Of a stretch of 64,000 nt of DNA, positions 47,733 to 64,000 are shown one piece after another. Source of the DNA: Candidatus Micrarchaeota archaeon. Its GTDB lineage: Archaea > Micrarchaeota > Micrarchaeia > Anstonellales > Bilamarchaeaceae. The notes under the pieces were generated by a model, which was not told the DNA's origin, made no database searches, and saw only the letters and a list, made by a program, of their open reading frames with translations. The number at the start of each line of letters is the position of its first letter. The stretch's first letter is position 1. The stretch is taken from NCBI GenBank assembly GCA_022627495.1, contig JAKEGJ010000008.1:8212-72211 (forward strand), given 5' to 3'. The translations under genes and the position numbers were made by a program.

Positions 47733-48073
47733 GGGGTAGTTGCGGCCTTGCAAGCCGCTCCCCCCCCCATTTCTTCGAAATGGGGTCGTTGTGGCCATGC
47801 GTGGCCACTTCTCCCCCATTTTTCTTGAAGCAGAGCTTATGCTAATCATGATAAAATAATGAAAAATGGGGTCGTTGTGACCTTCGGTCACTTCCACCCC
47901 AATTCTCAATGAGGCATTCTGATGCCTTAACAATGGGAAAAGGAGAATTGGGGTCACTGTGATTTGAACACAGATCAAAGCCTTGTCCTAGCCCTTTGGT
48001 TGTTGCCGCTCTCACGGCTTTTGGGGTCAAGCCCTTTTGCCATGAGAATTGCGGAAGCCAAAAGGGCTGCCCG
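47733..48073 (+). repeat. array of five GGGGTC-(variable hairpin)-C-run modules with AT-rich interlocking junctions
   Basis: GGGG(T)C cores start at 47733, 47782, 47868, 47950 and 48023. Each is followed by a different perfect hairpin: GCGGC/GCCGC, GTGGCCA/TGGCCAC, GTGACC/GGTCAC, CTGTG/CACAG, AGCCCTTTTG/CAAAAGGGCT. Strand is not established. Confidence 0.75.
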
Positions 48074-50505: not shown

Positions 50506-52293
50506 CTAAGGGGCTCGCTTGTCTTCCGAAGCACGGTCGAAATAGAAATACTCCCCCGCCGCCTTCTGCTCCGAATCGAGCTGGCTGCCGGGCTTGTTTA
50601 TCCTCGGCCTGCTGCTGTCCCGGTCGCGCCTCATCGTTATGCCCGCCACTTTCAGGAAGCCGTTCATGCCGCTCCTCTTGTTGAGCGGCGCGGACGCATG
50701 CCCGTGCATCGAGCTCTTTCCGTCGAAAACCACCAGGCGGTTCGCGATTGCGTCGATGAAGACGATGTCATGGTCCACGACGAATGCGCATTTCTCGCTC
50801 TCGCTGATGACGCGCCGGAGCAGCGATGCGAATTCAAACCTCTGCTCAATGTCCAGGAACGCGCTCGGCTCGTCGAAAAGGTATGCGTCCGCGTTCTGGC
50901 TTAAGGCCAGCGTCAGCGCGACGCGCTGGAGCTCTCCCCCCGAGAGCTGATTCAGCTCCTTGTCCATCAGCATCGTGATATTCAGCTTGCGCTTGCATTC
51001 CTCCAGGACGCCCATATTAAGGTCCTTTCCCGCGAACATTGCGGATACGACGACGGGCTCCGCGGTTATGTACTGGGGCTTGTAAGAAATCCTGAGGCCG
51101 AGCTGTTCGCCGTCGTCAGCCCGCTCCACGCCCGCAAGCATCTTTACGAAAAGCGATTTCCCGAGGGCGTTCTTCCCGACAAGGCCGAGAATTTCCCCCT
51201 TTTTTATCTCGCCTGGGTCGCTGGAGAATCTGAAGCCGGAGGATTTGCCCTTGAATTCCTTGGCCATCGCGCCGTATTTCACGAGCGCAGCGGCCTTTAT
51301 CTCGCCTTCGCTGTGCTTGCTGAACCCTATCTCATAGCCGCGGAAGCGCACGTTCTCGTCTTTGAGGTATCCTGCGATATATTCGTTGATGCCCACCCGG
51401 ACATTCTTCACGCCGGAGACCACACCATAGACGTTTTCGTCGCCGTAGAGTATGTAAACGTAATTGCTGACATAGTCCAAAAATGTCAAATCATGCTCGG
51501 CCATCATCACGCTCCTGCGCTCGGCCAGCTCCTTGATGATGACCGCCATCCGGAGCCGCTCTTCGATATCCAGGTAGTTTGTGACTTCGTCGAAATAGTA
51601 TATGTCGGACTCTTTCATGTACGCAGCCGCTACCGACACTTTCTGCAGCTCTCCGCCGGACAGCTGGTCCAGCTTCCGCTCCAGTATGTCTTCGATGCGG
51701 AATAGCCCTGCGATTTCGCCAAGCCGGGCCTTGCTTCCCGAAACGTTCCCCAGGAGCTCGGCGACCGTGCCCTTGAAAGCCTCCCGGACGCGGTCTATGT
51801 GCTGGGGCTTGACGCTGAGTTTTAGGCCCTCCCTTGTCTTCGCGAAATACCTCCTCGATTCTATCGGGAGCTTCGCCATGACTTCATCGTCAGTCCATTC
51901 CTTCCCGAACTGGGCGAAATTGGGCTTCACCTGCCTGCTTAGGAGCTTGATGGCGCTGGTCTTCCCGATGCCGTTCTTGCCCACGAGTGAAACCGCCCCT
52001 TCGATGGGGAGCGGGAGGCCGTAGAGCCGAAACGTGTTGACGCCGTACTGGAAGACCGGGTCGCTAAGCTCCTGTGCGACGTTGATGATTGAGATGCAAT
52101 TGACCGGGCATTTCTTCACGCACAGGCCGCAGCCTATGCACAGCGCCTCGGAGAACACCGGGTAGATGCCGTTTTTCTCGACAACGATGCATTCCTCGCC
52201 CATCCGGTTCGGAGGGCAGACCTTGGCGCAGACGTAGCCGCACCGTTTCTCTATGCATACGTCCCTGTCCATCACTGCGACCCTGGTGACCAT
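50506..52293 (-). CDS. abce1: ABCE1 (RNase L inhibitor) ribosome-recycling ATPase
   Basis: N-terminal 4Fe-4S motifs (CIGCGLCVKKCP) plus two ABC cassettes (GKNGIGKT, LSGGELQ twice). Confidence 0.92.
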   Translation of the reverse strand: MVTRVAVMDRDVCIEKRCGYVCAKVCPPNRMGEECIVVEKNGIYPVFSEALCIGCGLCVKKCPVNCISIINVAQELSDPVFQYGVNTFRLYGLPLPIEGAVSLVGKNGIGKTSAIKLLSRQVKPNFAQFGKEWTDDEVMAKLPIESRRYFAKTREGLKLSVKPQHIDRVREAFKGTVAELLGNVSGSKARLGEIAGLFRIEDILERKLDQLSGGELQKVSVAAAYMKESDIYYFDEVTNYLDIEERLRMAVIIKELAERRSVMMAEHDLTFLDYVSNYVYILYGDENVYGVVSGVKNVRVGINEYIAGYLKDENVRFRGYEIGFSKHSEGEIKAAALVKYGAMAKEFKGKSSGFRFSSDPGEIKKGEILGLVGKNALGKSLFVKMLAGVERADDGEQLGLRISYKPQYITAEPVVVSAMFAGKDLNMGVLEECKRKLNITMLMDKELNQLSGGELQRVALTLALSQNADAYLFDEPSAFLDIEQRFEFASLLRRVISESEKCAFVVDHDIVFIDAIANRLVVFDGKSSMHGHASAPLNKRSGMNGFLKVAGITMRRDRDSSRPRINKPGSQLDSEQKAAGEYFYFDRASEDKRAP

Positions 52294-60963: not shown

Positions 60964-61090
60964 CGTGTATCGCTATATATCCTTCGCGCGTTCTGGCGCT
61001 TTCTAAGGCATCAGAATACGTAATCTAAGCACATGGCCTCCGTTTTTTGCGGGGGGACGCTTTTTGTGGAAAACTATCTCTCATAGTTTT

Positions 61091-61119
61091 GACTCACGCT
61101 TCAAGAGCAATTGATCTGT
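61091..61119 (+). other. 5' strand of the 16S rRNA processing helix
   Basis: GACTCACGCTTCAA...TTGATCTGT is complementary to 62802-62830 (ACAGATCAA...TTGAAGCGTGAGTC): 14 bp plus 9 bp around an internal loop. Confidence 0.75.
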
Positions 61120-61193: not shown

Positions 61194-62731
<1,538 letters not shown>

Positions 62732-62801
62732 AAAATTACTGAAGTCACATTCAGGAATTTGTGGAAGCAGTGTGCGAGTACGACGAAGCGAAAGCTTCGG
62801 T

Positions 62802-62830
62802 ACAGATCAACTCTAATTGAAGCGTGAGTC
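62802..62830 (+). other. 3' strand of the 16S rRNA processing helix
   Basis: Complementary to 61091-61119. Confidence 0.75.
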
Positions 62831-62876
62831 ATCCTAATTATTTTAGACTCTTGAAGCGATAGCGCGAGCCAGGCCG
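62806..62876 (+). repeat. 71-nt direct repeat, copy 1 (overlaps the 16S 3' processing strand)
   Basis: 66/71 identical to 63661-63731. The last 46 nt differ at one position. Confidence 0.9.
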
Positions 62877-62948
62877 ATATATTTTAGGGCCCCTTTGGTG
62901 GAAACCAAAGCATATATAATCTGAATGCGTGGTTATATATGCAATAAG

Positions 62949-63632
62949 ATGGTAATTATGGCAGATACCGGGAAATTCAAAAAAACGCTGAAGGCGCCAG
63001 GTGCCGCCAGAGTCATCCTTAATGAGGGGAACCAGGTCACACGCCGGGATGTGCTCGCCGAGGTTAAGCGCCGCAACCGCCTTCATATAGCCTCATTCGG
63101 GCGCCCTCCAGAAATCTCCCATCTGGATTTCATGAAAAAGAATGCGCGCGTCGATAAGTCCGTAGAAGAGCTGATGGCGAGAGAAGGCGACGATTTGCCT
63201 TCACAAGATGAAAAAGCAATGCCTGTTTATTATGCGAGCCCAACACACGAATTCCTCGCCTCTTTTAAGGACGGTTTTTTTCAGATGCTAAGTTTTGCCG
63301 TTTCCAGCGACAAACCGTTCATAAGAGAGGTGGAATATTGCCTGGGGAGTCTTTGTGCGCTCTGTCGCGGCAATAATCTCGACCCGGACGACCAGATTGA
63401 TTATTTATTCTTCGAAATCAAGGACGAATTTGAAGTATCCGGAAAGCTCAGCCATACTATGAGGGATGGAAGAGCCATCCAATTCTCATTTGAAGAGCTC
63501 GTTTTCATAAATCAGCTAGGAGCGCTAGCAAAACGTCATTTGGAAACCGGCCAGTGCACAATGTCTGAAGCCATGATCCTGTGCCTGAAAAAAGCATGGG
63601 AAGACAAGCAAAAAGCCAAGAATACTGCCTAG
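62949..63632 (+). CDS. hypothetical protein in a low-GC segment between the 71-nt repeats (ORF opens at 62925)
   Basis: Uninterrupted 235-codon frame. TATA-like CATATATAAT at 62911-62920. Visibly more AT-rich than the flanks. No motif recognised. Confidence 0.55.
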   Translation: MVIMADTGKFKKTLKAPGAARVILNEGNQVTRRDVLAEVKRRNRLHIASFGRPPEISHLDFMKKNARVDKSVEELMAREGDDLPSQDEKAMPVYYASPTHEFLASFKDGFFQMLSFAVSSDKPFIREVEYCLGSLCALCRGNNLDPDDQIDYLFFEIKDEFEVSGKLSHTMRDGRAIQFSFEELVFINQLGALAKRHLETGQCTMSEAMILCLKKAWEDKQKAKNTA

Positions 63633-63660
63633 GATTCCGAAGCTAAAATCTTCCCTGCTA

Positions 63661-63731
63661 ATCAACTCTGATAGAAGCGCGGGTCATCCTAATTATTTTA
63701 GCCTCTTGAAGCGATAGCGCGAGCCAGGCCG
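63661..63731 (+). repeat. 71-nt direct repeat, copy 2
   Basis: See copy 1. Confidence 0.9.
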
Positions 63732-63805
63732 GGGCATCTGGTTATCCCCCCTCGAGGGGATGCATCAGGTTATATAAGTCTTTTCCTGAATATATGTGTG
63801 GCATT

Positions 63806-64000
63806 ATGAAAAAAGTTGATGGTAAAGCAATCCAGGGGCAGTCTGGGGGGGACACCATTTCCCGGAAAGAATTTCTTGAAAGAATCAGGACCGAAGCCGG
63901 AATGATGGAAGCGGTGCGGGAAATGGAGCGGGAAAGCGCGGATGGGCCGAGGTTTGATAGGTTCGAGCCGGATTCGCAAGAGGCCCGGGATTTCATCAAC
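63806..64000 (+). CDS. hypothetical protein, 5' fragment (runs off the window)
   Basis: ATG at 63806 is preceded by the TATA-like TTATATAAG (~63770). The frame stays open to the window end (MKKVDGKAIQGQSGGDTISRKEFLERIR...). Confidence 0.45.
   Translation, partial: MKKVDGKAIQGQSGGDTISRKEFLERIRTEAGMMEAVREMERESADGPRFDRFEPDSQEARDFIN

Follow-up and report, generated by a model that had tools for sequence, protein, structure and literature searches.

Direct repeats behind the solitary 16S rRNA gene in a Micrarchaeota archaeon as probable scars of a small gene cassette in the rRNA trailer

We analysed a 64,000-nucleotide stretch of DNA (the window) from a Candidatus Micrarchaeota archaeon, namely positions 8212-72211 of contig C8 in a metagenome-assembled genome (MAG) that comprises 1.45 Mb in 29 contigs and is 82% complete (labelled G000; other G-numbers denote the related genomes compared). 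Near the right end of the window, part of the 3' trailer of the 16S rRNA gene occurs twice, as a direct repeat of 86 nt on either side of an open reading frame (ORF1). We consider it probable that the insertion of a small gene cassette, carrying ORF1, into the 16S 3' trailer left the two copies as scars on its left and right, and that this rRNA trailer is a hotspot for such insertions. The elements of the 16S locus and of the repeat are the following, where box B, a name given in this analysis, denotes the motif YAGCG-NN-AGC(C/G), often followed by ATA:

61090..61119, plus strand: 5' strand of the pre-16S processing stem, TGACTCACGCTTCA-AGAG-CAA-TTGATCTGT (inverted repeat and co-fold)
61194..62732, plus strand: archaeal 16S rRNA gene (Rfam RF01959, 1394 bits)
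62791..62876, plus strand: repeat copy 1, comprising part of the trailer hairpin, A1, the T-tract and box B (repeat finding, alignment)
62802..62831, plus strand: A1, the functional 3' strand of the processing stem, ACAGATCAA-CTCT-AAT-TGAAGCGTGAGTCA (inverted repeat and co-fold)
62832..62847, plus strand: T-rich tract TCCTAATTATTTTAGA, presumed archaeal terminator of the 16S transcript (read from the sequence)
62848..62876, plus strand: box B in its extended form CTCTTGAAGCGATAGCGCGAGCCAGGCCG, with the core TAGCGCGAGCC at 62860-62870 (conserved behind rRNA genes)
63646..63731, plus strand: repeat copy 2 (repeat finding, alignment)
63657..63686, plus strand: A2, a decayed copy of the 3' processing strand, GCTAATCAA-CTCT-GAT-AGAAGCGCGGGTCA (co-fold)
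63687..63731, plus strand: T-tract 2 and box B2 (core 63715-63725), 44/45 identical to copy 1 (alignment)

Repeat finding gives 87% identity between the copies, with fainter similarity extending left to ~62782, and a search across the genome returned these two copies only (E = 1.5e-24). The initial annotation, made from the window sequence, had noticed a repeat of 71 nt from 62806 with 66/71 identities, which is reproduced here as the core of the longer one. The copies differ at 11 of their 86 positions, and these differences are unevenly distributed: ten fall within the 41 nt of hairpin and processing strand versus one within the 45 nt of T-tract and box B (Fisher p = 0.0026), in agreement with the annotation's remark that they cluster in the part that pairs in the processing helix.

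The 30-nt inverted repeat formed by the 5' strand and A1 encloses the 16S gene and co-folds at -43.9 kcal/mol, by which the processing helix previously proposed at 61091-61119 / 62802-62830 is recovered. Its geometry is that of a canonical 3-4-3 bulge-helix-bulge, with helices of 14 bp (TGACTCACGCTTCA / TGAAGCGTGAGTCA), 4 bp (AGAG / CTCT) and 9 bp (TTGATCTGT / ACAGATCAA) and with bulges on opposite strands, CAA on the 5' and AAT on the 3' strand, separated by the 4-bp helix. The A1 core, ACTCTAAWTGAAGCGTGAGTC, is nearly invariant in the genus and its sites lie solely 3' of 16S; a T-tract stands at the corresponding place in all congeners and presumably terminates the 16S transcript. Copy 1 serves as the working trailer of 16S and consists of bulge-helix-bulge 3' strand, T-tract and box B. 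According to two published accounts, archaeal pre-rRNA processing stems with bulge-helix-bulge motifs are cleaved by the splicing endonuclease EndA (PMC7038931, PMC7714728). Copy 1 conforms to this scheme by supplying the 3' strand of the canonical stem around 16S; the present locus differs in that the 3' strand is duplicated downstream, as a second copy that lacks a separate 5' partner and no longer pairs to the full extent, much of its pairing being lost. With the 5' strand, A2 reaches only -25.7 kcal/mol in the co-fold, both outer helices containing mismatches, and an inverted-repeat search found no separate 5'-strand copy between the repeats. The annotation's statement that copy 2 can no longer form the helix is hence too strong, as pairing is weakened and not abolished.

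The rRNA genes of this genome lie on three contigs, with 23S at C4:52325-55270 and 5S on contig C13, and are thus unlinked. Since ARAGORN finds no tRNA in the window, the earlier observation that 16S is followed by neither 23S nor a tRNA stands.

Comparison with relatives delimits the insertion. Within the genus, the gene order ArsR / 16S / spacer / zinc-ribbon / helix-turn-helix (HTH) protein of 92 amino acids (aa) / GluRS is conserved. Homology of the window with G023, G035, G010 and G030 ends at 62839-62871, namely at the 3' edge of box B (62869-62871) for G023 and G010 and already where the processing strand ends (~62840) for G035 and G030, and it resumes at window-equivalent 66939-66945 (L004 7151-7157). 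The spacer measures 150 nt in G023, 194 nt in G035, 116 nt in G010 and ~1350 nt in G030, versus ~4.07 kb here. Furthermore, the metagenome contig Ga0265297_10000381 is 98.9% identical over 16S and trailer and has a spacer of ~320 nt with three box B copies, from which ORF1 and the three reading frames that follow it here (ORF2-4) are all absent. The comparison for empty sites that had been proposed with the initial annotation therefore has a clear outcome, with the insert missing from G023, G035, G010 and this contig. The predicted ORF1-less junction was not found in a metagenome scan; a second scan gave one close relative with an empty site. Given the empty sites in close relatives, the insert is recent, and it extends past the inter-copy segment: by these alignments, it is a lineage-specific insert of ~4.07 kb, from 62870 to ~66940, with ORF1, copy 2, ORF2, ORF3 and ORF4. 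The annotation had proposed a small cassette in the rRNA 3' flank, with att-like repeats and no integrase. This is upheld by the empty sites, by three congeners with similar cassettes and by the lack of an integrase; it has to be modified in that the insert is ~4.07 kb and not ~780 bp, and in that T-tract and box B are derived from the host. The remaining features of the insert are:

62877..63645, plus strand: unique part of the ORF1 cassette, with TATA-like boxes at 62876-62888, 62910-62921 and 62932-62942, a hairpin at 62893-62910, and ORF1 (composition, comparison with relatives)
62958..63632, plus strand: ORF1, 224 aa (235 aa from an alternative start at 62925), an ORFan, mostly helical (open reading frame)
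63794..64000 within the window, plus strand: ORF2, 136 aa, ending at window-equivalent 64204, preceded by a hairpin (63733-63769) and a TATA-like box (63768-63780) (no family hits)
beyond the window end to ~66940: ORF3 (92 aa) and ORF4 (776 aa) (sequence continuation of the contig)

The segment between the copies has 46.8% GC versus 57.7 ± 4.4% for the genome, which places it in the bottom 3% of 700-nt windows and agrees with its earlier description as AT-richer. GC at third codon positions is 53% in ORF1 and 61% in ORF2 versus ~71% in the genome's long ORFs; ORF1 and ORF2 are compositionally foreign, and ORF3-4 are host-like. The unique segment of the cassette is absent from all relatives compared. 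ORF1 has no match in Pfam or PHROG, is absent from 60 related genomes and found only itself both in a word search among 5.8 billion clustered proteins and in a full HMMER search among 1.84 billion representatives, so that it remains, as previously stated, without a recognisable family; a single-sequence AlphaFold2 model was unusable (pLDDT 51). As a reading frame of this length is very improbable by chance at 47% GC, we treat ORF1 as a gene of unknown function. T-tract 2 and box B2 now stand at its 3' end and upstream of the promoter of ORF2, which starts at 63794 or 63806 behind a TATA-like box, in line with the second unit of TATA box and reading frame that had been noted after copy 2. Scans of ORF1-4 against Pfam and PHROG detected no recombinase, integrase or transposase domain, and the single tyrosine recombinase of the genome lies on contig C29. 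G007 has homologues of ORF3 and ORF4 3' of its own 16S, and paralogues of ORF3 are present in the genome under study beside other large genes. A search for loci related to ORF4 found none, and the large genes beside the ORF3 paralogues are not detectably related. As a separate observation, ORF3 belongs to a small paralogous family with sites at C23:35998-39266, C23:9999-13260, C25:251-4600 and C5:31774-32043 of this genome; three members stand directly upstream of helical proteins of 946-1336 aa and unknown function, as a repeated two-gene module.

Given that the sequence stems from a MAG of 29 contigs with 82% completeness, and that in the congener G032 a contig breaks exactly at a trailer copy, a chimeric contig joined at a short repeat deserves mention. 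We regard such an artefact as highly improbable, for the copies differ at 11/86 positions, synteny with relatives extends over the two outer flanks within a single contig, ORF3 has its paralogues in the same genome, and the GC content of ORF3-4 is host-like.

Similar arrangements occur in other genomes. A pattern scan of the genus places the 21-nt core of the processing strand solely 3' of 16S, usually once, yet three times in G021 and in G032. In G021, four copies of the trailer strand, spaced by 1159, 660 and 685 nt, separate a nucleotidyltransferase and HEPN gene pair and two ORFans on the opposite strand; compared to the 16S-proximal copy they are 100%, 87% and 71% identical, dropping with distance. 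In G032, three units of strand, T-tract and box B separate an ORFan and a pair of HEPN and winged HTH genes, and in G030 two units flank an ORF of 195 aa. The cassettes of these relatives lie in either orientation. G156, from another genus, has a 15-nt duplication of box B at +84 and +885. A further case is found behind the 23S gene of the genome under study, where comparison with G035 reveals a 347-nt insert flanked by a duplication of ~16 nt of box B (contig C4 ~51850-52220, minus strand; L079/L005). It has its own TATA box, a membrane ORF of ~80 aa (MAKTIELGTVLL...) and a hairpin followed by T6. In the 16S trailer here, the 23S trailer here, G032 and G156, the right edges of the units lie 2-6 nt past the AGCC core. 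By comparison of these genomes, the spacer between box B and the zinc-ribbon, HTH and GluRS genes is a variable hotspot in the genus. We also considered a transposon or insertion sequence with target-site duplication and rejected it: the insert ends have no inverted repeats, Pfam and PHROG scans show no transposase, and the duplications, of 15 to ~95 nt, are not of fixed length.

Several findings weigh against the interpretation of the copies as cassette scars. How far the repeated unit reaches to the left differs between events, from 15-16 nt (box B alone) to ~95 nt (hairpin, strand, T-tract and box), and two of the G021 copies are without box B, so that one precise att core cannot explain all cases. 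The left part of copy 2 bears the trailer hairpin of this very lineage, which implies that the duplicated unit is of local or very close origin, though ORF1 looks foreign. No trailer copy stands behind ORF2-4, and most of the 4-kb insert thus falls outside the same scar logic. Reiterated trailers were seen in only 4 of ~27 congeners with a 16S flank, and among 56 other genomes of the order in none save the case with the box alone; in an order-wide screen for such reiteration, weak hits numbered 12 versus 8 in an inverted-orientation control, which is no excess. Finally, Pfam and PHROG scans revealed no recombinase in or beside the insert, and the numbers of tyrosine recombinases (one in this genome, none in G021 and G032, three in G030, one in G023 and four in G035) do not correlate with the arrays.

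Much of this could also be expected from local duplication without any insertion system, where slippage, unequal crossing-over or template-switching break repair duplicated ~95 nt and trapped foreign DNA; recurrence would then reflect the fragile, highly transcribed end of an rRNA gene. The lineage-specific hairpin in copy 2, the different unit lengths between events, the lack of an integrase together with the uncorrelated integrase counts, and the rarity of reiteration outside the genus all speak for it. It accounts less well for right edges that consistently lie a few nucleotides past box B at four sites, for arrays of three to four units that separate unrelated genes in both orientations, and for the decay with distance in G021, which suggests ordered accretion. 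On balance, we judge local duplication unlikely and retain cassette insertion. As to the enzymology of such an insertion, short-homology recombination of circles or repair-associated duplication fits about as well as a dedicated site-specific enzyme.

Box B is found at +100 to +155 from the 16S end, after processing strand and T-tract, in 16/19 congeners, and in this genome a T-tract and box B also follow the 23S processing strand (CTTCTTGAAACGGATCAGCGTTAGCCAGG), as box B does behind 23S in at least 12 congeners. Across the order, it occurs at +84 to +219 from the 16S end in 23/59 further genomes, many with a different processing strand, which corresponds to an enrichment of ~60-fold, with only 10 sites in the remaining 364 kb of those loci. 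Empty sites with a convergent next gene still have it. We conclude from this conservation that box B is a host element and not a foreign part of the repeat. The initial annotation had considered that the repeat might turn out to be a conserved processing element present at all rRNA loci; this applies to the box, which is common to 16S and 23S trailers, while the 86-nt duplication is still specific to this locus. Three other roles for the box were discarded. A general stable-RNA signal is rejected by its absence after 5S and after the six tRNAs found by ARAGORN, and a promoter of the next gene, as a general rule, by its presence before convergent genes. A strand in an RNA helix with the 16S leader is rejected by duplex energies: complementarity to the leader does not exceed that of controls in 8 genomes, and the own leader does no better than the leaders of other genomes. 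T-tract and box B together would rather form an end-of-transcription or insulation module of the strongly transcribed rRNA genes, in which box B may act, for example, as a protein-binding roadblock just behind the T-tract. In eukaryotes, terminators of RNA polymerase I consist of a T-rich element followed by a binding site for Reb1, Nsi1 or TTF-I. The arrangement here resembles them in that, behind 16S and 23S alike, a short conserved box stands 10-25 nt past a T-tract, and in that the box has two conserved halves around a free central dinucleotide, as protein sites often have. We offer this likeness as an analogy only.

Some further box B sites may be recorded here. Those on contigs C21 and C11 have no Rfam family nearby. 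At C21:96235-97635 (minus strand; L108 1235-2635) lies a 466-aa ORF with motifs resembling regions 2-4 of bacterial sigma-70, which could stem from horizontal transfer or from binning contamination; it adjoins a small membrane ORF followed by T-tract and box B. In G023, the otherwise empty spacer at +160 to +245 from the 16S end (L044) holds another box B (CTAGCGTCAGC) together with an exact reverse complement of it (GCTGACGCTAG), ~70 nt apart, which could be a long hairpin or a pair of inverted boxes.

The distribution of box B and the pairing energies bear on two more explanations. In the first, copy 2 would act at the RNA level as an alternative 3' partner of the 16S 5' strand, or box B would pair with the leader, so that read-through transcripts are cut or circularised differently and expression of ORF1 is coupled to rRNA processing. 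Indeed, A2 still forms its weakened, bulge-helix-bulge-like duplex, and CTCTTGAAGCG is an exact 11-nt complement of 61097-61107, as the annotation had noticed when suggesting an alternative partner for the 5' strand. This complementarity arises because the left part of box B equals the processing strand minus the AAT bulge. The complement is thus real; its energy, however, is only -21 kcal/mol, and the true strand is better by 18-23 kcal/mol than either candidate. Moreover, a T-tract stands behind every copy, the substitutions of copy 2 fall exactly in its pairing part, the cassettes of relatives lie in both orientations, leader complementarity of the box stays at control level, and box B also follows 23S, whose 5' strand is unrelated. 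We hence deem a function at the RNA level very unlikely. The second explanation, also raised by the annotation, sees in the repeat a former 16S-23S spacer or a remnant of the 23S 5' processing strand that was reused as a promoter module. The A/T-rich, TATA-like sequence that often follows directly after box B would suit it. Against this, the 23S 5' strand (GAGTGTGAAGTGACGGCAAG...) is unrelated, the shared motif lies 3' of 23S, in its trailer, and not 5', and box B is present in empty sites without a following plus-strand gene. We give this derivation hardly any credence.

For the insertion of a cassette, which we favor, the following course may be envisaged. A cassette with ORF1, 855 bp from copy to copy, would have entered the trailer of the stand-alone 16S gene by recombination at or beside box B. 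The entry point of new DNA appears to lie directly 3' of the box, because units in other genomes end 2-6 nt after AGCC. The recombination might be served by a recombinase acting in trans, or else excised cassette circles carrying a trailer copy might recombine through short homology. Copy 1 would provide the stem strand that the splicing endonuclease cuts to release pre-16S, and would be kept by selection for rRNA processing. Copy 2 would be the duplicate that remained on the distal side of the cassette, where its processing-strand half was no longer needed and decayed. Its nearly intact T-tract and box B would either still work, as end of gene for ORF1 or as insulator by the ORF2 promoter, or have been copied more recently. 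At present the hotspot holds ~4.07 kb, with the two low-GC ORFans ORF1 and ORF2 and the host-like pair ORF3-ORF4. A wider proposal, which we put forward as a possible though rather doubtful extension, is a dual role of box B across Micrarchaeales. The box would be both the host signal that ends or insulates rRNA transcription and the attachment point for an integrase-less capture of cassettes, served in trans; each cassette would bring or regenerate a trailer copy so that 16S processing survives. Such a system would be an rRNA-anchored counterpart of the integron.

The ends of stable-RNA genes, of tRNA and tmRNA, are the classic landing sites of mobile DNA; genomic islands and integrative elements sit at their 3' ends, with tandem accretion at one site (e.g. 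tycheposon-type islands). The present locus shares much with them, namely direct repeats that flank the insert, a proximal repeat that forms the functional 3' portion of a stable-RNA locus, empty sites in relatives, tandem units with decayed older distal repeats, atypical composition, and a cargo of toxin-antitoxin type and ORFans. It differs in its target, which is a pre-rRNA trailer with processing strand, T-tract and box B and not a tRNA gene, in its small units of 0.35-1.2 kb with one or two genes and repeats of 15 to ~95 nt, and in that no integrase was found in any unit.

A likeness to integrons is also apparent. Their cassette arrays (IntI, attI, attC) have been reported from archaeal MAGs as well (bioRxiv 10.1101/2022.02.06.479319 / PMC9668308). 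In both systems, small cassettes of one or two genes are separated by a recurring site, the cargo includes ORFans and toxin-antitoxin genes, and the newest unit apparently lies closest to the anchoring site. Here, however, there is no intI near the array, and the repeat is an rRNA trailer copy without internal inverted symmetry, unlike the imperfect palindromes of attC. Further, the cassettes bring TATA boxes of their own, are found in either orientation and are anchored at an rRNA trailer.

Our literature searches returned no description of rRNA trailers as cassette sites, and we know of no earlier account of an rRNA processing trailer as a landing site of mobile DNA. If used in the manner of tRNA and tmRNA ends, the trailer would be a new kind of insertion site. 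In genomes of ~1-1.5 Mb with a single 16S gene, it would be a compact place of entry and exit for accessory genes such as toxin-antitoxin pairs and ORFans. It would also make gene flow more accessible to study in DPANN archaea, which, as far as we know, are not yet open to manipulation. How archaeal rRNA transcription ends is poorly understood, and box B, as a short, strongly enriched and order-wide signal behind both large rRNA genes, would be directly testable for a role in this step.

Three minor observations concern stable-RNA genes. At 47740-47960 of the window, on the minus strand, three hairpin modules, each similar to the T-arm and acceptor end of the tRNA (e.g. GGGGTGGAAGTGACCGAAGGTCACAACGACCCCA), lie behind an intron-bearing tRNA-Pro; this is a further stable-RNA 3' end reiterated downstream in this genome, with no genes between the copies. 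The 16S gene measures 1539 nt versus a model of 1478 positions, and has a short insertion directly upstream of the 515 region (window 61640-61720). In G041 (L166, C1:63904-71004), a 30-nt repeat, GTTAAAAAAGACCTATAGTAGGATTGTGAC, occurs six times with ~69-nt spacing at +190 to +560 from the 16S end and resembles a CRISPR array that directly adjoins the rRNA trailer.

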